Shown: positions 1-42,687 of the stretch, one piece after another
Position numbering within the stretch: position 1 is the first letter of the stretch
Layout: each line of letters begins with the position of its first letter
Source of the DNA: a virus
Virus record (IMG/VR): IMGVR_UViG_3300021387_001323
Reading direction: 5' to 3' (one strand)
Length of the DNA: 42,687 nucleotides
Position numbers and translations under genes: made by a program
The notes under the pieces: model-generated
Databases searched by the model: none
What the model was told of the DNA's origin: nothing
What the model saw: the letters and a program-made list of their open reading frames with translations, nothing else

Positions 1-107
1 GTCCTCCTTTGTGATTGTGGGCTCCATTTACGCGGGGACGCTCAGGTCCCCGCATTTGATACTATTGGCGCTTCGCTTTGATAGAGATGCGGAAGCAGAC
101 GGGCACG
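1..107. repeat. Terminal direct repeat copy 1 (assembly overlap of a circular sequence)
   Basis: Identical base-for-base to 42581-42687; the RBS of the ParB-like gene (start 42573) lies inside the repeat, so genes read through the junction. Confidence 0.9.
32..53 (-). promoter_or_regulatory. Hairpin downstream of VR2 (candidate DGR target-recognition structure)
   Basis: GCGGGGAC (32-39) / loop GCTCAG / GTCCCCGC (46-53), perfect 8-bp stem; no U-tract follows on the minus strand; homologous hairpin after VR1 at 14112-14133. Confidence 0.6.
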
Positions 108-844
108 TAGAACGCGCTGGACGCGTGGTGGTAGTTGGAGAACCCGTAGCTGCCGACACGCACGACGAGCGACGAGCTGCCGGAGGGAGCCGAAGCAGTC
201 CACCAGGTGGCCATTTCCTCGCCTCCCGGCTCGGTGGCTTTCATGCGATTGCGTCGGTCTTTGTAAAAATCGAGCTGCTCATAGAGCGGAGCGTACCAGT
301 CATCATCCGGCTCAAAGAGCTCGGAAGCGTCCGGCAGGAAGAGTTTTGATCTGAAAGTCATCTCGTCAGCATCCTCGTCGCCGCCCTCTGTGAAACGTCT
401 CTCGGTGTCAATGATCAGTTCCCGGATGTAGTCCGGCAAAAGCGGTAGCATCTTCTCGTTGAGATACTTCTGCACATCGGACGCCCAGACGCCGCCAGCG
501 TTGCCGCCTTTTTCATTCCACACGGTCTTGCCGAGGCAGTCGTGAGAGTCGAAACGGATCCAGTCCTCGCCGCGGTCAACGATGTCAAAGCGTGCGGTCC
601 GTCCGTCTGTCAGCTCCATTTTGATGTAGTCACCGACTGCTGCATCTGCAAGGTCCTCAATAAAAGTCTGAGGCTTGTGCATCTGTGCTGCGCTTTCGCA
701 GCATCCGTGCTCACCCTGCTGTATTTTCGCAGCATATACGAACGGCTTGCCGATCTCTTTTAAATATTCCATCGCCTGGCTCATTGCGCCGTCTCCCTCG
801 GCTTCGATAGCCATGGTTCCTGTGATGATCTTGACCTTTTCCAT
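62..844 (-). CDS. DGR target protein 2: N-terminal unknown domain plus C-terminal C-type-lectin-like variable domain (paralogous to tail-fibre C-terminus)
   Basis: C-terminus ...ATWWTASAPSGSSSLVVRVGSYGFSNYHHASSAFYVPVCFRI parallels fibre C-terminus ...AYWWTASALSGSSTYVVFVSHHGTSGNGNASYAFCVPVCFRT; last ~117 nt match the TR; RBS AGGAGGGAGCACATG. Confidence 0.85.
   Translation of the reverse strand: MEKVKIITGTMAIEAEGDGAMSQAMEYLKEIGKPFVYAAKIQQGEHGCCESAAQMHKPQTFIEDLADAAVGDYIKMELTDGRTARFDIVDRGEDWIRFDSHDCLGKTVWNEKGGNAGGVWASDVQKYLNEKMLPLLPDYIRELIIDTERRFTEGGDEDADEMTFRSKLFLPDASELFEPDDDWYAPLYEQLDFYKDRRNRMKATEPGGEEMATWWTASAPSGSSSLVVRVGSYGFSNYHHASSAFYVPVCFRISIKAKRQ
96..212 (-). repeat. DGR variable repeat VR2
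   Basis: Aligns without gaps to TR 13514-13630; 21 differences, 20 at plus-strand T (= sense-strand A) of the TR. Confidence 0.9.
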
Positions 845-7690: not shown

Positions 7691-8113
7691 ATGGCAAAAA
7701 ATGAAACGCTGCCGAGTGTTATCGATATTATGGAGCAGGCCGACGAGTCTGCTCAGAGAGCTCTGCAGACTCTTTTGAAAAATTCACTTTATAAGAAAAG
7801 ACAAAAGACCGAGCCTGCTGCCGTTGAGCAGCTGGAGGATCTCGGTCTTATATCCGTGGTTGATGGTTCTGCGGTTTTTTCTCCGGATCTTGATGCCTGC
7901 AAGAAAAAGGTCTACACCTATTTGATGCGAAAGTATGAGGATCAGCAGTATTATGACGAGGATATGGAGCCGCACACCATTCCGCATGGTGCTCAGATGG
8001 TGGCCAGCGTCTCGCTTTCCGGTTCTGAGCTCCGCGTTGAGTTCCCGGATGATGATGTGACCGCCTTGCTCGATGCTCACGGCGTCAACCGTTGCAGGGG
8101 GTGGAAGCTGTGA
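7691..8113 (+). CDS. Hypothetical lysogeny-module protein
   Basis: RBS TAGGAGGTGATTCTATG; between repressor and integrase; no recognisable motif. Confidence 0.6.
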   Translation: MAKNETLPSVIDIMEQADESAQRALQTLLKNSLYKKRQKTEPAAVEQLEDLGLISVVDGSAVFSPDLDACKKKVYTYLMRKYEDQQYYDEDMEPHTIPHGAQMVASVSLSGSELRVEFPDDDVTALLDAHGVNRCRGWKL

Positions 8114-9738
8114 AAAAGAAAAAAGAGGTCGCTGCCGGATCTGTTCCGGCCGTGATCTATGCCAGATATTCAAGCAGTGGCCAGCGTGAGGAGTCCATTG
8201 AGGGACAGCTGAGAGACTGCCGGGAATATGCAAAAAAGAACGGCCTGCTCGTTGTTGGTGAGTATATTGACAAAGCCCTCACCGGTAGGACAGACAAGCG
8301 CCCGGACTTTCAGAGGATGCTCAGGGATTCCGAACGCGGAGCTTTCAAGGTCGTGATCTGCTGGAAGATGGACCGCTTTGCCCGCAACCGGTACGACTCG
8401 GCCATGTATAAATACAAGCTAAAAAAGAGCGGCGTCCGCCTGGTTTATGCCATGGAGTCCATCCCGGAGGGACCTGAGGGGATCATCCTCGAGAGCGTCA
8501 TGGAGGGATATGCTGAGTACTACTCCGAAAACTTGAGCCAGAACGTCAAGCGCGGATATTATGACAGCGCCCTGGAGCTCAAAACGCTCGGGCAGACTGT
8601 CCTGGGATATAGAAAAGGCACCGACGGTCGTTTTGAGATAGATCCGGCCACCGCTCCGGTCGTCCGGAGGATCTTCGAGGAGTATGCTGCCGGAGAACGC
8701 GCCAAAGACATCTACGAGAGACTCAACGAGGAGGGATATCGCACCACCCGTGGTGGAAAATTCAACAAAAACAGCATCCGGAGGATCCTGCAAAATGAAA
8801 AGTACGTGGGCGTCTATGAGTTCAAAGACATCCGCGTCGAAAATGGGATCCCGGCCATTGTGAGCCGTGAGCTGTTTGAGGAGTGTGGAAAAATGGTAGA
8901 AAAACACCACCGTGCGCCTGCTGCAAAGCGCGACGAGCCTTTCCTGCTCACCACGAAGATCTTCTGCGGAGAGTGTGGCGAGCCGATGACCGGAGACGCT
9001 GGTACCAGCAAAAGCGGCGCCGTGCATTATTACTATATTTGCAACGGCAGGCGGCGCCATACGTGCAAAAAGGAGCGCGTGCGAAAGAACGAGATCGAGG
9101 AGGCAGTGGTTTCCGAGCTTGTGCAGCTGATTCACTCCGGTGATTTTATTGAAAAGGTCGCAGATCTTGCGATGGAATACCAGGAGCGAGAAAAGGACAC
9201 GAGCGCACTCAAAGCACTCGAAGCCCGTCAAAAAGACATAGAAAAGAAGATCGAGAACGTCCTCAGAGCCATCGAGGACGGCATTGTGACCGCATCCACA
9301 AAGACGAGGCTCATGGAGCTGGAAGCCGAGCGGGCTGACATTGAAAAAGGGATAGCCAAAGAGCTGATAGCAACGCCGGAGCTCGACCGCGATCAGATTG
9401 TTTTCTTTTTGGAGAGGTTCCGGGATGGTGATGCAAAGGATGAGCGGTACCGGGAGTTCCTGGTTGACACGTTCCTGCAGGCCGTTTTCGTTTACGACGA
9501 CCGCCTTGTGATCACGCTCAACTATTCCGGCCAAAATAACAAAGTCACGAAGTCACTCGCAGACAAAGCCGCCAGCGGCGAGGGTTCTGGGTGTTCGTGT
9601 TTGGCGCCATCCGGCGCACTCAATGGCGCAGATTTGAACACCTCACCGATCCGGATCTTCTGGATTCAAAAGGTGATCGGAGTGGTCGCGCCGTATGATC
9701 GAAAGATTCAAGAGCAAAAGAAAAAAGCCAGGGTATAA
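8110..9738 (+). CDS. int: Large serine recombinase (integrase)
   Basis: AVIYARYSSSGQ...RPDFQRML...WKMDRFARN resolvase catalytic domain, recombinase domain and Cys-rich zinc ribbon (CGECG...CNGRRRHTC), coiled coil. Start GTG 8110 (GTGA overlap) or TTG 8092. Confidence 0.9.
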   Translation: MKKKKEVAAGSVPAVIYARYSSSGQREESIEGQLRDCREYAKKNGLLVVGEYIDKALTGRTDKRPDFQRMLRDSERGAFKVVICWKMDRFARNRYDSAMYKYKLKKSGVRLVYAMESIPEGPEGIILESVMEGYAEYYSENLSQNVKRGYYDSALELKTLGQTVLGYRKGTDGRFEIDPATAPVVRRIFEEYAAGERAKDIYERLNEEGYRTTRGGKFNKNSIRRILQNEKYVGVYEFKDIRVENGIPAIVSRELFEECGKMVEKHHRAPAAKRDEPFLLTTKIFCGECGEPMTGDAGTSKSGAVHYYYICNGRRRHTCKKERVRKNEIEEAVVSELVQLIHSGDFIEKVADLAMEYQEREKDTSALKALEARQKDIEKKIENVLRAIEDGIVTASTKTRLMELEAERADIEKGIAKELIATPELDRDQIVFFLERFRDGDAKDERYREFLVDTFLQAVFVYDDRLVITLNYSGQNNKVTKSLADKAASGEGSGCSCLAPSGALNGADLNTSPIRIFWIQKVIGVVAPYDRKIQEQKKKARV

Positions 9739-10170: not shown

Positions 10171-10944
10171 TTATACTTTCTTAGCATAATCGAGGCTGAT
10201 CCATCCGGCGCCGCTCTTGAGCTTGCCCCATCCGGTTTTTGAGCCTTTTCCGCTCTTGACCTCGACGATTGTATAAACTCCGGGCTTGATGACGCCCTTT
10301 CTTGCGGTGTCAGTTCCTGCGCCTGCTCGGATGTTTAGGTCAGTGATTGAGACTCTGACCTTGAAAACTCCCGTTGTTGGCGTCGGTGTTACTGCCGGAG
10401 AGTCGGATCCTGCGCCGAGTCTCTTGTTGACCTCCTGAGCGATCCAGCCGTGGAGCTTGTAGAGATAGTCGCCAGGGCACGCCTTGGCTGCATAGTCACG
10501 GTGCACGGTCATGTTGCAGCCGTTCAAGTGGTTCACGCGGTCGTTTTTGTTCTCTGACCAGACGAGCTTCTTGATGCTGTTACGCTTGCAGATGTCCTCG
10601 ACCAGATTGAGCAGCGAAGCCAGCGCCTTGTCTGATACGTGCCAGCCGGTATTTGCTCCGCCATCGTTTGCCACCTCGATGGTGACGGCTCTCATGTCGT
10701 TCGCTCTGTTTGAGGTACACCAGGAGCGGTCTTTTTCCTCGACATACATGGCAATGCGGCCATCGGATCCGATGCCGTAGTTGCTGGACGCCTGTCTTGA
10801 AGTAGGCGCGAACACGTTGCCGCAGGTCTCGACCGTGAGATTGCCGGCCATGCAGTGAATCGTGATCGTGTCGATGGCGTGATTTCTTGGGCTGGTTTTG
10901 TTCGGGCTGATTTTGGTGTAGCACACCAGTGAGCTGTTACTCAT
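10171..10944 (-). CDS. Endolysin: N-acetylmuramoyl-L-alanine amidase (Amidase_2/PGRP-like) with C-terminal SH3-like domain
   Basis: ITIHCMAG...SSNYGIGSDGRI...HRDYAAKACPG catalytic motifs; C-terminal ...NIRAGAGTDT...GWGKLKSGAGWISLDY SH3b-like. Confidence 0.85.
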   Translation of the reverse strand: MSNSSLVCYTKISPNKTSPRNHAIDTITIHCMAGNLTVETCGNVFAPTSRQASSNYGIGSDGRIAMYVEEKDRSWCTSNRANDMRAVTIEVANDGGANTGWHVSDKALASLLNLVEDICKRNSIKKLVWSENKNDRVNHLNGCNMTVHRDYAAKACPGDYLYKLHGWIAQEVNKRLGAGSDSPAVTPTPTTGVFKVRVSITDLNIRAGAGTDTARKGVIKPGVYTIVEVKSGKGSKTGWGKLKSGAGWISLDYAKKV

Positions 10945-11035
10945 CGTCCTCGCCTCCTTTTGCATCATTGAGCTCATCGAGAGCCTCCTCAGGGATTTCG
11001 TTTTCGTTTGTTACTTCCTGCAATTTTTCATCCAT
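10937..11035 (-). CDS. Possible 32-aa acidic peptide, translationally coupled between holin and endolysin
   Basis: ATGGATGA overlap with upstream stop; MDEKLQEVTNENEIPEEALDELNDAKGGEDDE; below ORF-track cutoff. Confidence 0.3.
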   Translation of the reverse strand: MDEKLQEVTNENEIPEEALDELNDAKGGEDDE

Positions 11036-11889: not shown

Positions 11890-12099
11890 CTATTCATCCG
11901 CAGCGGCAAGCTCCTCCTCGAGCTCGTTGATGCGCTCGCGGTAGCTTTTGCGGAGTTCTTTCATCTCCTCATAGTCTGCGTCAGAGATCTCACCCTCTGA
12001 GTGTTTGATTGCCTGGTAGTCCGTGTTGCTCAGGAGCTGCTTGTAGGCGTTGATCTCGCCCTGGATCTCCTGGCTCGGTCTTGCTGTTTTCTTTGCCAT
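11890..12099 (-). CDS. Hypothetical small coiled-coil protein
   Basis: RBS AAAGGAGGACAAGAAAATG. Confidence 0.55.
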   Translation of the reverse strand: MAKKTARPSQEIQGEINAYKQLLSNTDYQAIKHSEGEISDADYEEMKELRKSYRERINELEEELAAADE

Positions 12100-13261
12100 T
12101 TTCTTGTCCTCCTTTTGGATTGGTTATTTGTTGGCCGCCTATCCAGTTTTCAATAAATAGGCGATTAAAAAGAGCGTCCATGCTCTTGACGGTCCGATAT
12201 GCGTCGCGGTGGCTCATGGATCCGCGCCAGCTGGCGTATGATGTCCGGATGTTCTCGAAAGTAAGAACACCCTCCTCCAGGAGCTTCGCTTGCTTTTTCA
12301 GTTTTCTGCGTTCGCGTGTTATTGCATCCCTGCAGGGCTTCTTGATGATGTGGCCGCTGTCTGTGATATAAAAGCGGGTTTTCAAGTACGTGAAGCCGTG
12401 GCGCAGGTCGCAGATTTTTGTCTTTTTCTCGTTGATTATGATGCCATACCTGGCATATACCTCCCGGAGCTTTTCAAGGCACTCCCTGAGATATTCCACA
12501 TCCTCGTGGATCAGATAGCTGTCGTCCATATAGGCGCCGTACCCTTTTATCCGGAGCACTTCCTTGGCAAAGTGATCCGACGGGCTCCTGAGTGCGACCG
12601 CGTTGATCTGGCTGGTCTCTGATCCGAGACCGAGGCCGATGTCTCCGAAAGCATAAATAAACGACAGCCCGAGAGCTCGGAGCCTGTCGTCATAAAATGC
12701 CGCCCGGTAGATCTTTTCGAGAGCTGCATGGTCTGCCTGGCCAAAATAATCACTAAAGTCGATCAAAAGGATCCCGCCGGTGCGTCCATGCCTGTGGATG
12801 TGTCTCACCAGGTGGATCGTCATGCGATCGAGTGCAAACTGCGTGCCTTTTCCTCTTTGACTGGCTCCGTTGTCATAGATCAGGGAGTTCGTCAAAACTG
12901 GATAGAGGGCGTTCCTGCAGATGCTTTTCTGGACTACTCGCTCAGAAAAATGCACGCTTTTGATGTGCCTGAGCTTTCCGCGTTCCATAAGATCAAAGCA
13001 GATAAATCCCTTTCGGATGTCTCTGCCTTTTAACAAGTCCCGGTGTGTCCGGTATATGTTGAGCATCCGCGTGTAGTTGTAACGCTGGACGCTTGCTTTC
13101 CAGGCGACGCCGACCTGTGCCTCGTCTGCAGCTTTATTCAACGAGTTGAGAGATGCAACGCGATCAAAGTCATCGTACTCCGACAGCTTTGCCCGGCGCT
13201 TTGCATCTCTGGCCGATTTTCGGCGCAGGTATCGGCGCTCGCGTCGTTCTTCGCTTGTCAT
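11990..13261 (-). CDS. DGR reverse transcriptase
   Basis: YMDD catalytic motif (GYGAYMDDSYLI), LGLGSETSQINAV (DGR-type SQ motif), ILLIDFSDYFGQ motif; adjacent to TR. Confidence 0.9.
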   Translation of the reverse strand: MTSEERRERRYLRRKSARDAKRRAKLSEYDDFDRVASLNSLNKAADEAQVGVAWKASVQRYNYTRMLNIYRTHRDLLKGRDIRKGFICFDLMERGKLRHIKSVHFSERVVQKSICRNALYPVLTNSLIYDNGASQRGKGTQFALDRMTIHLVRHIHRHGRTGGILLIDFSDYFGQADHAALEKIYRAAFYDDRLRALGLSFIYAFGDIGLGLGSETSQINAVALRSPSDHFAKEVLRIKGYGAYMDDSYLIHEDVEYLRECLEKLREVYARYGIIINEKKTKICDLRHGFTYLKTRFYITDSGHIIKKPCRDAITRERRKLKKQAKLLEEGVLTFENIRTSYASWRGSMSHRDAYRTVKSMDALFNRLFIENWIGGQQITNPKGGQENGKENSKTEPGDPGRDQRLQAAPEQHGLPGNQTLRG

Positions 13262-13640
13262 TTCTCCGTGTTCCTTTGTTAAATTAAAAAACAGTCACCG
13301 GGCACGGCTTAGCGCGTTATTGTAACCGCATAGGATGCAGGCATGAAGCAAAAGGCTCTCGCGCTCCCTTTTGCCATGCAAGAAGCGTCCGCCTGCTCTC
13401 GTCCCGGTTCTTATTTACGCCTCAAAGGGCGAGGGATGACTGCTCCTTCCACCCACTTGGCACGGCTTTCGGCTCTTTTGGAGCTTACTCGATCTGGCTC
13501 TATTGCGTGGGATCAGACGGGCACGCAGATCGCGTTGGACGCGTTGTTGTTGTTGGAGTTCCCGTTGTTGTTGACATTCACGACGTTCGTCGAGTTGCCG
13601 GAGTTAGCCGAAGCAGTCCACCAGTTGGCCCGAGCACCAC
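13262..13640 (-). ncRNA. DGR template RNA region (TR plus 252-nt spacer leading to RT)
   Basis: No credible minus-strand ORF; contains TR, a 13-bp hairpin (13341-13379) and the 10-nt repeat GGCACGGCTT at 13301-13310 and 13459-13468. Confidence 0.65.
13514..13640 (-). repeat. DGR template repeat (TR)
   Basis: 127 bp; sense strand reads GGARANWWTASANSGNSTNVVNVNNNGNSNNNNASNAICVPV with 14 AAC/AAT codons; 31 adenines. Confidence 0.9.
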
Positions 13641-13663
13641 ATAACAGCAGTCATCCCGTTGAT

Positions 13664-14092
13664 TTATTTGTTTTTCCCTTTTCCTCCGACCGGTATCACT
13701 TTGTCGTTGTCTCTATGGCGCATCGCGAGCCCGATCTCTTTGTCGAGAAGCTCAAGGATGTCGGCCATGGATGCAGACGTTGCGGACGGGATCACGTTCT
13801 GCGCTCGTGCCAGCTTCCGGTCGAGTTGTTTGCAGGCTGTGATCGTCATCCTCCAGTAGTCCCGGCGCCTGTCGATGTGTTTTTCATCCGGCCAGGTCTC
13901 GTTTGCTGCGATTGCGCAGTCGCTGATCTTGTCAGCTGCTTCCACCAGCGGGACGCCCACGAGTTGCCTCCATCTTTTCGGGATCCGCTTTTCGTTCATG
14001 ACGTAGAGCGTCACTGCATCCTGGAGACGTGCCGCGACATCCACCGGATCGAAGTGTGTCTGCTTTCTGTTTCTCGCATAGACTCCGCTCAT
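13664..14092 (-). CDS. avd: Accessory variability determinant (Avd)-like protein
   Basis: 142-aa basic, predicted helical protein located between target gene and TR, the canonical Avd position; RBS GGAGGTACACGATG. Confidence 0.6.
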   Translation of the reverse strand: MSGVYARNRKQTHFDPVDVAARLQDAVTLYVMNEKRIPKRWRQLVGVPLVEAADKISDCAIAANETWPDEKHIDRRRDYWRMTITACKQLDRKLARAQNVIPSATSASMADILELLDKEIGLAMRHRDNDKVIPVGGKGKNK

Positions 14093-14111
14093 CGTGTACC
14101 TCCGGTGTTAT

Positions 14112-14133
14112 GCAGGGGCGCAGAGGCCCCTGC
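14112..14133 (-). promoter_or_regulatory. Hairpin downstream of VR1 (candidate DGR target-recognition structure)
   Basis: GCAGGGGC / loop GCAGAG / GCCCCTGC, perfect 8-bp stem, no U-tract; covaries with hairpin at 32-53. Confidence 0.6.
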
Positions 14134-14156
14134 TATTTGTGCATTGCATCGGTCGC

Positions 14157-15494
14157 TTACGCTTCCATAGTTCGGAAGCAGACGGGCACGCAGAACGCGT
14201 AGGACGCGTTGCCGTTGCCGGAGGTCCCGTGGTGGCTGACAAACACGACGTACGTCGAGGAGCCGGAGAGAGCCGAAGCAGTCCACCAGTAGGCCCGAGC
14301 ACCACCCGGGCCAGCACCTTTCATGCGGTGCTCATAGCTGTTGGCAAAGATCGGATACTGAACAGCCTGACCGTTGCCGTAGCCCTTGGTTGACCATACG
14401 AGGCAGTCGAAGATCTCAGTCTCAAGAGGCGCCCAGAGCTTGTCGAAGTCCTGCCACGCCCACGAGTTGTCGTCCGTAAGAGTTGCGCCGCTCTGATAAC
14501 GAGATGGTGCGAGGATTCTCTTTGCCTTGATGACGTTCTTGAGCTTTGCATCCAAAAGCGGGTAAAGTGTGCCGTCGAGCCAGCTCTTGAGGTTTGAGGC
14601 AAGAAACGGGCTTGGACTGTTGGCGTTGCCGTTGTTGTTATTTGTTGTGTTAAACTGCACCGTCTGGCTGTAGCAATCGCGAGTGATCCAGTCGATGTGG
14701 TAGCCAACTTCGTGACCAGTGTCTCCGGTTCTTCTGTAGGTGTTTATACCTGCAATCTCCGCAAGATGATTCTCGGCGCCGACTTTGATTGGAATATAAT
14801 CGCCGACACGCAAACCGCTCACATTATGAGCATCGAGCCTTGCCTGGATCCACGCCCATTCGTCTGAGTAGTTTGCAATCTCATCGGCAAAAATGACCGT
14901 CAAGTCTCTGCCTGGGAGCATGATGCGGTTGATCCCGTCCCATGCCGCCTCTGTCTCTGCTGCCTGAGCAGTCTCAAAGGCTGCCTCTTTTGCAACCTGA
15001 TCGGCAAGGTCGTCCGCGAGAGCGTAAGCTCCGGCACCTGCCTCGATGGTCACGTTCGCAGAGTTGTCAACCGTTGCGTAGTATTCCTGGACGATGGTTG
15101 TCGGTGTGAGTCCATTGTATGGCGGCATATAGTCAGCGACCTGAGCCACCGAGATGGAATAGAGCACCGGTACCGCATCGGGATCGAGTGCGTCCGTTGC
15201 ATAAAGTCCGACCTCTCTGACGTAGTAACCAGCCAGGAGCTCCTCGTTGTCAAGTGCTGCCGTGAGGTGCACGCTTGTGTCGGATTCCACCACAATGCTG
15301 GAAAAAGCGACGCTCTGCTTCTGACTTTTGAGAGCTGTCCGCTGCTGCAATGCTGAGACAGCACGCTCGCCCTCTGTGTATTCACCATCACCGGCGACCA
15401 GTGTGGTAAATTCGATCTTTGCGGTGCCTGCCAGGGCGGCGGCAAGCAGCGCAGCTCCGTCGTTTGTCATGACGGCTGCATAAAATTGAGCCAT
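14157..15494 (-). CDS. Tail fibre / receptor-binding protein, DGR target 1
   Basis: N-terminus MAQFYAAVMTNDGAALLAAALAGTAKIEFTTLVAGDGEY resembles phage tail-collar fibre N-domain; C-terminal lectin-like domain ends in VR1; follows baseplate I-like gene. Confidence 0.85.
   Translation of the reverse strand: MAQFYAAVMTNDGAALLAAALAGTAKIEFTTLVAGDGEYTEGERAVSALQQRTALKSQKQSVAFSSIVVESDTSVHLTAALDNEELLAGYYVREVGLYATDALDPDAVPVLYSISVAQVADYMPPYNGLTPTTIVQEYYATVDNSANVTIEAGAGAYALADDLADQVAKEAAFETAQAAETEAAWDGINRIMLPGRDLTVIFADEIANYSDEWAWIQARLDAHNVSGLRVGDYIPIKVGAENHLAEIAGINTYRRTGDTGHEVGYHIDWITRDCYSQTVQFNTTNNNNGNANSPSPFLASNLKSWLDGTLYPLLDAKLKNVIKAKRILAPSRYQSGATLTDDNSWAWQDFDKLWAPLETEIFDCLVWSTKGYGNGQAVQYPIFANSYEHRMKGAGPGGARAYWWTASALSGSSTYVVFVSHHGTSGNGNASYAFCVPVCFRTMEA
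14179..14305 (-). repeat. DGR variable repeat VR1
   Basis: Gap-free alignment to TR 13514-13640; 18 differences, all at TR sense-strand adenines. Confidence 0.95.
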
Positions 15495-42580: not shown

Positions 42581-42687
42581 GTCCTCCTTTGTGATTGTGG
42601 GCTCCATTTACGCGGGGACGCTCAGGTCCCCGCATTTGATACTATTGGCGCTTCGCTTTGATAGAGATGCGGAAGCAGACGGGCACG
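42581..42687. repeat. Terminal direct repeat copy 2
   Basis: Identical to 1-107. Confidence 0.9.

Follow-up and report, generated by a model that had tools for sequence, protein, structure and literature searches.

The stretch of DNA analysed here (42,687 nucleotides, IMG/VR virus record IMGVR_UViG_3300021387_001323; hereafter the window) very probably carries a functional diversity-generating retroelement (DGR), a system in which a reverse transcriptase serves to rewrite the tip of a phage tail fibre at template adenines. It belongs to a temperate, myovirus-like phage found in samples of animal gut or rumen and combines an avd-TR-RT core with two target genes. The original prediction, which was made from the DNA letters, placed the components in the order of a fibre gene ending in the variable repeat VR1, a hairpin, a 142-aa basic ORF, the template repeat (TR), a 252-nt spacer and a reverse transcriptase (RT) with the motifs YMDD and GSETSQ. 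Both the coordinates and the motifs bore out this arrangement.

The repeat pair and the two target genes

The features that bear on the exchange between the TR and VR1 are as follows.

13,514–13,640, minus strand: TR, the template repeat, non-coding, 127 nt with 31 sense-strand adenines
14,179–14,305, minus strand: VR1, the variable repeat at the 3' end of the fibre gene, 127 nt, an ungapped pair with the TR
14,158–14,192, minus strand: IMH-like 3' boundary of VR1, an A-free, GC-rich 14-nt element TGCGTGCCCGTCTG common to the TR, then CTTCCG and onwards
14,157–15,494, minus strand: target gene 1, a tail fibre of 445 aa (Pfam PF12571 and PF19789; PHROG 7037)
14,112–14,133, no strand assigned: GC-rich inverted repeat 3' of VR1 (stem of 8 bp, loop of 6 nt)

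When aligned without gaps at an offset of 665, the TR and VR1 were found to differ at 18 positions, all of which (18/18) are T on the plus strand, i.e., sense-strand A of the TR. The changes comprise eight A>T, five A>C and five A>G, and the chance of all 18 mismatches falling on the 31 adenines among 127 positions is 6.3e-14 (hypergeometric). The ungapped comparison confirmed the gapless 127-bp pair and the 18 differences at template adenines that had been claimed, and a recount returned the same 31 adenines and 14 AAC/AAT codons, which in the frame of VR1 are 13 AAC and one AAT. No stop codon can be reached by adenine mutation from any of the TR codons. The adenine-specific pattern is a direct observation, as are the identities of the components. 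Beyond the 3' end of the repeat, the likeness between the TR and VR1 runs for five more nucleotides with two non-A mismatches, marking the point where IMH and IMH* diverge. After TGCGTGCCCGTCTG, VR1 and the second variable repeat (VR2; see below) continue with CTTCCG and the TR with ATCCCA (IMH versus IMH*), and the contrast between CTTCCG in the VR and ATYCCA in the TR recurs at VR2 and in Roseburia phage Shimadzu, the relative compared in the last section. This sequence pattern agrees with the IMH/IMH* boundary of a DGR, of which the function here is putative.

The 445-aa ORF ending in VR1 possesses an N-terminal Phage_tail_fib collar (PF12571) and a C-terminal DUF6273 (PF19789) according to Pfam, matches PHROG 7037 (tail fibre), and adjoins the genes for Baseplate_J and Tail_P2_I. 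VR1 encodes residues 397–439 of the protein, and DUF6273 is among the target domains described for DGRs (PMC11792537). The AF2 model of the fibre (pLDDT 91) had strong structure matches in BFVD to phage DUF6273 proteins and also matched receptor-binding proteins, together with weak matches to DUF1566; its PDB matches by Foldseek were mostly C-type lectin domains and were weak (E above 0.01, low TM).

The second target is found far from the fibre, and the corresponding features are listed below.

62–844, minus strand: target gene 2, 260 aa, with a C-terminal DUF6273 (Pfam PF19789), in the replication module
96–212, minus strand: VR2, the second variable repeat, matching TR positions 11–127
32–53, no strand assigned: GC-rich inverted repeat located 42 nt past the end of identity of VR2 (stem of 8 bp, loop of 6 nt)

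VR2 and target gene 2 lie outside positions 11,990–15,494, to which the original prediction was confined. Twenty of the 21 differences between VR2 and the TR are at adenines, the sole exception being a G>A in the GC-rich 3' element, and differing VR2 alleles are held by two other contigs (L022 and L023). Target gene 2 belongs to the replication and early module, where it is flanked by a phrog_1029 gene and a ParB-like one; it lies ~13 kb from the fibre, with genes for SSB, G39P_N and ParB_N as its neighbours, and no recognisable virion domain was found in the 260-aa protein. Considering both this location and the lack of a virion domain, the second target may not be a tail component. It is possible, albeit rather doubtful, that the protein is a non-structural DUF6273 binding protein diversified for a purpose other than adsorption, for example towards a variable molecule of the host or a competitor inside or outside the cell. 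If this is the case, a single DGR would serve two distinct biological functions.

The GC-rich hairpin expected downstream of a DGR VR, with a stem of 7–10 bp, is present 3' of both VRs with an 8-bp stem, and the one after VR1 lies 45 nt past the end of the TR/VR1 identity. We found neither a T-run after the VR1 hairpin nor a hairpin counterpart 3' of the TR. The stems after VR1 and VR2, in the contig L001 and in Shimadzu differ in sequence yet stay paired. The loops measure 6 nt here (CTCTGC and CTGAGC; CTSWGC), those of L001 and Shimadzu 5 nt. The hairpin consensus of phage DGRs, a 4-nt GRNA loop located 4–34 bp from the VR (Guo 2011), is not matched by the hairpins here in either loop (6 nt) or spacing (42–45 nt), the published range being counted from a differently defined VR end than ours. 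The same paper calls the hairpin distance flexible (Guo 2011), and the role of the hairpin has been described for BPP-1 (PMC3240598).

Reverse transcriptase, spacer RNA and accessory protein

The remaining components of the cassette are the following.

11,990–13,261, minus strand: DGR reverse transcriptase, 423 aa (Pfam RVT_1; PHROG 1423, 201 bits)
13,262–13,513, minus strand: TR-RT spacer, 252 nt, holding the Rfam RT-2 RNA
13,274–13,502, minus strand: RT-2 RNA (Rfam RF03077), full-length match to model positions 1–222 at 125.9 bits (gathering score 40)
13,664–14,092, minus strand: putative Avd-like accessory protein, 142 aa, pI 9.6 (AF2 four-helix bundle, position and distant family links)

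The RT bears YMDD at residues 244–247 and LGSETSQ, a motif of the [I/L]GxxxSQ type, at residues 212–218, and ends in a non-conserved C-terminal tail of ~45 residues extending into the following gene. In PDB it had a single significant match, the RT of BPP-1 (bRT; 54.7 bits, E 1e-13), in which R74 and I181 align with R98 and L212, respectively, of the RT in the window; the role of these two residues in bRT has been described (PMC7826257). The next-best PDB match was a group II maturase (15.8 bits, E 0.06); retron RTs were absent from the PDB matches listed. The scores against TIGR04416 (30.7 bits, cutoff 300) and against the PADLOC models for RT, DRT and retrons (36 bits or less) were far under the family cutoffs. 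The grouping with group II intron or retron RTs that the original prediction had named as an argument against a DGR was not seen in the PDB search, and both the similarity search and the motifs suggest that the RT belongs to the DGR type, nearer to bRT than to the RTs of group II introns and retrons. A group II intron or retron identity was also considered and rejected, as (i) the RT scored below the family cutoffs, and (ii) no cognate structured RNA was detected in the Rfam scan.

The Rfam scan of the whole window returned RT-2 as the sole match, and neither group II intron nor retron RNA was found. RT-2 is similarly placed in L001, Shimadzu and a further contig (L024). RF03022 (Phage_DGR) gave no match in the window at either the gathering threshold or E<=1, and scored 104.7 bits on BPP-1 as a control. 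The RT-2 segment probably acts as the cis-acting RNA scaffold and primer segment of the DGR.

The AF2 model of the accessory ORF is a four-helix bundle (pLDDT 85), for which the best Foldseek matches (TM of 0.73–0.82, weak E-values of 0.03–1.2) were 2gsc, 2rld and chain 8ube_D, the Avd of BPP-1. Both 2gsc and 2rld belong to the PF05635 family. The ORF is 44% identical to orf23 of Shimadzu, which is annotated as ‘Avd’, and among its 62 distant relatives found by profile searches three match Pfam bAvd (best 1.1e-6) and one matches PF05635. The ORF itself matched none of the Avd models in Pfam (PF22296 bAvd and PF05635), NCBIfam and PHROG, even at E up to 10 for Pfam and NCBIfam; a sequence search of PDB gave no match, and hhalign against BPP-1 Avd gave no signal (probability 0.1%). 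Its expected membership of the Avd or other four-helix-bundle families was upheld in part: the models did not match positions 13,664–14,092 directly, but the fold did match, and the family is bridged to bAvd through the distant relatives. Fold, position and these distant family links support the prediction that the 142-aa ORF is Avd-like, and by homology with BPP-1 the protein may form a pentamer and bind the RT. The Avd-like family, which amounts to ~500 clusters at 50% identity, is missed by the Avd models of Pfam, NCBIfam and PHROG, and DGR finders that require an Avd match would consequently score such cassettes as Avd-less. These data link the orphan Rfam motif RT-2 to the spacer between TR and RT in a DGR clade with an experimentally active member (Shimadzu). 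It is attractive to speculate that RT-2 serves this clade as the scaffold RNA for priming in cis, together with a divergent Avd subfamily overlooked by current models; we regard this as more probable than the non-structural role considered above for the second target.

Variation among related phages and alternative readings

The population set consisted of 16 contigs from other samples that carry the TR, 15 of which also carry VR1. In these contigs avd is the same or 99% identical, and the TR is invariant except for one T>C SNP (L005–L008) and a 3-nt deletion (L019 and L026), both of which are mirrored in VR1 wherever the contig also holds VR1. By contrast, VR1 is represented by 12 distinct alleles among the 15 tabulated contigs. 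In the population contigs 239 of the 244 TR-to-VR1 substitutions are at adenines, and the nine distinct ungapped VR1 alleles vary in all 31 A columns against 3 of the 96 non-A columns. Had the TR varied as much as the VR, the original prediction would have been in doubt; we observed the opposite, a near-invariant TR and a VR1 that varies at the adenine columns, and these population data decide the matter in favour of a DGR. As near-identical phages hold different VR1 alleles, the turnover of VR1 must be much faster than the background divergence. The invariant TR as against the hypervariable VR1 across samples is observed directly, and so is the transfer of TR changes to VR1.

The cassette could in principle be a decayed relic, in which the TR/VR pattern reflects past activity and the targets are no longer mutated. 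Such a history is improbable, although the one non-adenine difference of VR2 inside the GC-rich 3' element would fit it, and some related gut-phage DGRs are reported to be without a signal in culture (PMC11792537). The RT ORF is unbroken and retains every catalytic motif, Avd, the TR, RT-2 and the two hairpins are likewise complete, and the near-identical phages of other samples carry different VR1 alleles along with RTs that are intact wherever checked. It is far less probable still that recombination, together with ordinary diversifying selection at a receptor-binding tip, produced the diversity of VR1 and that reverse transcription had no part in it. Tail-fibre tips are generally hotspots for both processes, and the fibre length does vary in the population (445, 451 and 452 aa). 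Nevertheless, neither process would limit the changes to the adenine columns of a separate non-coding repeat 665 nt away, nor would it copy the SNP and the 3-nt deletion of the TR into VR1. Finally, an RT of group II intron, retron or defence type next to a 127-nt repeat that is an unrelated duplication of the fibre gene end is scarcely conceivable, as the weak generic RT-domain matches that favour it are all far under the family cutoffs, bRT is the sole significant PDB match, RT-2 is the only structured RNA detected by the Rfam scan of the window, and a plain duplication can account neither for the concentration of changes at adenines within the window and across the population nor for the co-inheritance of TR changes in VR1. 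The cassette is a clean, fully documented case from nature of a phage DGR with two targets, in which the flow of information from TR to VR is evident at the population level.

Proposed mechanism and comparison with known systems

By homology with BPP-1, the avd-TR-RT region would be transcribed, and the RT and a pentameric Avd-like protein would assemble on an RNA composed of the TR plus the structured RT-2 segment that lies downstream of it. The cDNA would be primed in cis from this segment and extended through the TR, with bases misincorporated at random opposite adenines, and would then replace the VR homologous to it. Three features would set the 3' limit of the exchange, namely the GC-rich element free of A, the CTTCCG boundary and the GC hairpin beyond it, whereas homology would set the 5' limit. 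In this way, 17 codons, mostly AAC, at the C-terminal tip of the fibre DUF6273 could be randomised without creating stop codons, allowing ~10^18 protein variants, and the 260-aa DUF6273 protein ~13 kb away would be diversified likewise. We infer the priming chemistry, the assembly of Avd, RT and RNA, the role of the hairpins and the binding of a receptor by the fibre tip.

The original prediction called the layout the ‘canonical’ mtd-avd-TR-brt arrangement of BPP-1. The order is indeed that of the annotated BPP-1 record (mtd/VR1, bbp7 (avd), TR, brt), and most components of such a cassette lie where they had been predicted, the features of the target fold and the hairpin loop excepted. The two systems share the adenine-specific differences, a VR located 3'-terminally in a tail-fibre or receptor-binding gene, a GC-rich boundary element with a downstream GC hairpin, and a basic four-helix bundle as the accessory protein. 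Their RTs are homologous, with YMDD, IGxxxSQ and R74 conserved, albeit with an identity of only 25%. The term canonical fits less well in other respects: the accessory protein had no direct Avd-model match and shares no detectable sequence similarity with that of BPP-1, the spacer RNA is RT-2 (222 nt) instead of Phage_DGR RF03022 (127 nt), the hairpin loop is of 6 nt instead of the 4-nt GRNA, and the target is DUF6273 instead of Mtd, with two targets here. The DGRs of Faecalibacterium and gut-virome phages (PMC11792537; PMC10743442) resemble the one described here in having a VR at the C-terminus of DUF6273 and one TR for two targets, and these too are temperate gut phages with population variation at adenine columns. 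However, their RTs are only 30–35% identical to the RT in the window, and several of the phages are siphoviruses with other target architectures (for example, tentaclins or Mtd-like proteins).

Among annotated relatives, Roseburia phage Shimadzu (LR596903; Cornuault et al., bioRxiv 10.1101/575076 / ISME J 2020) is the nearest, and its DGR mutates both VRs as demonstrated by read analysis and in mice (bioRxiv 10.1101/575076). The two phages have in common a gene order that runs from baseplate J and the P2-I tail protein through the tail fibre with VR1, Avd, TR, RT-2 RNA, RT and a small ORF to the lysis genes, together with a GC hairpin after VR1, the CTTCCG/ATTCCA boundary, and a second VR in a remote gene, which in Shimadzu is of unknown function. 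The RTs are 70% identical and the Avd proteins 44%, and RT-2 scores 145 bits in Shimadzu at the same position as here. The genomes nevertheless show no DNA similarity at the megablast level, the hairpin stems and the TR sequences differ, and the RT in the window has an extra C-terminal tail of ~45 aa that Shimadzu lacks. The target hairpins, with loops of 5–6 nt, depart from the GRNA consensus. These findings leave the understanding of DGRs unchanged. The cassette is a well-supported but ordinary DGR, a close relative of the Shimadzu DGR, for which activity has already been demonstrated.

Template repeat and variable repeat of the cassette

We assign the cassette at 11990-15494, with high confidence, to the diversity-generating retroelements (DGRs), as originally predicted. 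The assignment is supported by differences between the template repeat (TR) and the first variable repeat (VR1) that are confined to adenines, by a reverse transcriptase (RT) resembling bRT, the RT of the prototype DGR of Bordetella phage BPP-1, and by the pattern of TR and VR1 in the population.

Features of the cassette
11990-13261, minus strand: RT with an RVT_1 domain, phage RT family phrog_1423 (201 bits)
13274-13502, minus strand: RT-2 RNA, Rfam RF03077, full-model match (125.9 bits; gathering score 40)
13664-14092, minus strand: Avd-like accessory ORF, 142 aa, pI 9.6, four-helix bundle in an AlphaFold model
14112-14133: VR1 hairpin, GCAGGGGC-CTCTGC-GCCCCTGC, starting 45 nt downstream of VR1
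14157-15494, minus strand: tail fibre with N-terminal tail-collar domain PF12571 and C-terminal DUF6273

Direct reading at an offset of 665 aligned TR (13514-13640) with VR1 (14179-14305) over 127 nt without gaps, and the repeat was recovered independently as family D1. All 18 mismatches are T on the plus strand, that is, adenines on the coding (minus) strand of TR, which changed to T in eight cases and to C and G in five each. TR holds 31 adenines, and the probability of all 18 mismatches landing on them by chance is 6.3e-14. Translated in the VR1 frame, TR reads GARANWWTASANSGNSTNVVNVNNNGNSNNNNASNAICVPV, with 13 AAC codons and one AAT. The coordinates, ungapped length, adenine-only differences and counts of adenines and AAC/AAT codons in the original prediction were thus all reproduced. 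The 17 changeable codons of VR1 can generate approximately 10^18 proteins with no potential stop codon. Within the fibre gene, 22 nt (14618-14639) are 91% identical to TR 13551-13572 and code for a conserved Asn-rich loop of DUF6273 (NNNNGNAN); the likeness probably reflects common AAC-codon composition rather than a third variable repeat.

The behaviour of the repeats in populations was examined in contigs from independent samples carrying either the exact avd protein, for which the assembly collection has 104 indexed blocks, or a 99% variant, together with one contig from the genome collection. TR was identical to that of the window in nine fetched contigs; its variants were a single T>C in L005-L008 and one missing AAC in L019 and L026, and the TR change was mirrored in VR1 of every contig also holding VR1. 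Twelve distinct VR1 alleles were found among the 15 tabulated contigs (a total that includes the window and L001, a more distant relative), and 239 of the 244 TR-to-VR1 substitutions in the tabulated contigs fell at adenines. Among nine distinct ungapped alleles, every one of the 31 adenine columns varied, as did 3 of the 96 other columns, one of them being the TR SNP. The original prediction had named TR positions as variable as those of VR as evidence against a DGR; a nearly invariant TR beside VR1 variable at all adenine columns favours the DGR interpretation. VR1 of contig L017 bears a 3-nt insertion relative to its own TR, within the AAC run, which possibly arose by slippage during cDNA synthesis or integration. 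The length of the AAC run varies at L017 3785-3914, L019 3179-3302 and 3841-3964, and L026 2791-2914 and 3453-3576.

Reverse transcriptase, spacer RNA and accessory protein

The gene order, the 252-nt spacer between TR and RT, and the YMDD and GSETSQ motifs of the RT had been described correctly. A clustering of the RT with those of group II introns or retrons would have spoken against a DGR. When the RT was searched against all PDB sequences, the sole significant match was the BPP-1 DGR RT (8ub7; E 1e-13, 54.7 bits), the next hit, a group II maturase, reached 15.8 bits (E 0.06), and retron RTs were absent from the match list. With the group II RT/maturase equivalog (cutoff 300) the score was 30.7 bits, and with the PADLOC models of retron, DRT and Cas-associated RTs it was at most 36 bits. 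Aligned with bRT, it conserves YMDD, the [I/L]GSxTSQ motif and R74, while I181 is replaced by Leu; bRT residues R74 and I181 are reported to promote adenine mutagenesis (PMC7826257).

The RT was intact in the contigs checked, including two missed by the gene caller; a broken RT, suspected from the gene tables of L014 and L006, was dropped when translation gave intact 423-aa RTs. The C-terminal ~45 residues (11990-12125) are not conserved in comparison with BPP-1 or Roseburia phage Shimadzu, and they share a 110-nt overlap with a conserved 69-aa ORF (11890-12099) that has a strong ribosome-binding site. The Shimadzu RT terminates where the counterpart of this ORF begins, and the 423-aa form is maintained in all near-identical contigs.

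The RT-2 RNA also fills the equivalent gap between TR and RT in L001, Shimadzu and L024, whereas BPP-1 carries a different family at this position (RF03022, Phage_DGR). In the paper defining the RT motifs, RT-10 was the only one tied to the DGR of BPP-1, with the speculation that further motifs belong to other DGRs (PMC5737381). In BPP-1, the downstream RNA binds Avd (accessory variability determinant), provides the priming site and confines processive synthesis to the DGR RNA (PMC6182149; bioRxiv 10.1101/2023.10.23.563531). By analogy, we infer that RT-2 would have the same role in the window, in Avd binding, priming and the confinement of synthesis.

The 142-aa ORF had been compared with Avd and described as basic, the latter being borne out by its pI. 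The comparison with Avd found no direct model in its favour: the ORF had no match in Pfam, NCBIfam, PHROGs, PADLOC or PDB sequences, even at permissive thresholds, and hhalign of two profiles of its family against BPP-1 Avd gave no signal. AlphaFold predicted a four-helix bundle (pLDDT 85), for which the top Foldseek matches were 2gsc, 2rld and chain 8ube_D, which is Avd in the BPP-1 RNP, with TM-scores of 0.73-0.82 and RMSD of 2-3 A; the E-values are weak, as would be expected of such a simple fold. Both 2gsc and 2rld are, we presume, members of the 23S-rRNA-IVP/Avd superfamily (PF05635). A profile search recovered relatives in 509 clusters, and among 62 diverse relatives three matched the Pfam bAvd model (best E 1.1e-6) and one matched PF05635. 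The Shimadzu homologue (44% identity) was named Avd by its authors. We therefore call the ORF Avd-like, as position, charge, fold and transitive homology fit while direct models give no match; its Avd subfamily is invisible to current models.

Two targets and their boundary elements

The fibre gene directly follows the Baseplate_J and P2-I tail genes. In BFVD, a model of its C-terminus (pLDDT 91) had numerous matches to DUF6273 proteins and receptor-binding proteins of phages, with E-values down to 1e-13. Its PDB matches were mostly C-type lectin domains, present yet weak, so that a C-type lectin fold is likely but not established; Mtd and TvpA were missing among the structural matches. The sole significant PDB structural match of the C-terminal model (14157-14960) was the IgA peptidase of Thomasclavelia ramosa (9qa6, E 4.6e-4), and DUF6273 is reportedly also mentioned in a study of M64 IgA metallopeptidases from gut bacteria. 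DUF6273 with a C-terminal VR has already been reported as a DGR target (PMC11792537; PMC10743442).

Features of the second target
32-53: VR2 hairpin, GCGGGGAC-CTGAGC-GTCCCCGC, starting 42 nt downstream of VR2
62-844, minus strand: target gene 2, a 260-aa DUF6273 ORF in the replication module, with VR2 at its 3' end
96-212: VR2, a third TR-like copy, differing from TR at 20 adenines and one non-adenine

The second variable repeat (VR2) has its own boundary element and its own GC hairpin, and its alleles differ in two IMG/VR contigs (L022 and L023). SSB, G39P_N and ParB_N genes neighbour the ORF. An exact look-up of a neighbouring ORF from its ATG start found two places only; in IMG/VR there were two VR2 loci as well as another two loci with the cassette, and a scan of JGI metagenomes with the VR2 flank found nothing.

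The A-free element TGCGTGCCCGTCTG closes both VRs, with one G>A change in the VR2 copy, and is followed by CTTCCG in both VRs versus ATCCCA in TR. No counterpart of the hairpins was found after TR. We rejected the hairpins as intrinsic terminators, since neither has a trailing T-run. The structure is kept with other stems in relatives (GCGGGGC-TTCCT-GCCCCGC in L001; CCGGCTAC-CTCGT-GTAGCCGG in Shimadzu). A hairpin/cruciform requirement was shown for BPP-1, with a reported 4-nt GRNA loop at a distance of 4-34 bp (PMC3240598). The window hairpins fit this requirement, albeit with 6-nt loops at distances of 45 and 42 nt.

The phage genome and known systems

The first 107 nt of the window (1-107) are identical to the last 107 (42581-42687), and the window is therefore a phage genome in complete form, either circular or terminally redundant, of about 42,580 bp (~42.58 kb). 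A large serine recombinase ORF (8092-9738, plus strand), assigned by analogy with a 542-aa Resolvase/Recombinase/Zn_ribbon gene likewise placed in related loci, indicates a temperate lifestyle. The lysis module varies among otherwise near-identical phages, with an Amidase_2 endolysin in the window (10171-10977) and a 261-aa ELLD-domain protein instead in L010 and L013 (7046-7831). The sole match in the genome collection, L026 (JAFUXZ010000001.1, a 42,116-bp contig), was binned in a 'Paludibacteraceae' MAG from roe-deer rumen; this contig is probably the phage itself, and the host is therefore not given by the bin. A Stomatobaculum MAG (P0179) includes a 137-kb contig that encodes a related fibre (85% identity).

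The cassette had no megablast match among 50,697 phage records, and its relatives were found at the protein level only. The nearest annotated relative by protein is Shimadzu, with an RT 70% identical to that of the window and the same order of tail fibre, Avd, TR, RT, small ORF and lysis genes. Two VRs were reported in Shimadzu, located in a tail gene and in a gene whose function is unknown, and adenine-type mutagenesis of both was shown in virion reads and mice (bioRxiv 10.1101/575076). Two-target DGRs with DUF6273 targets have also been described in Faecalibacterium and gut-virome phages (PMC11792537; PMC10743442). The departures from BPP-1, namely the RT-2 RNA, the model-invisible Avd subfamily, the longer hairpin loops and the remote second target, are common to already-described DGRs of gut phages.
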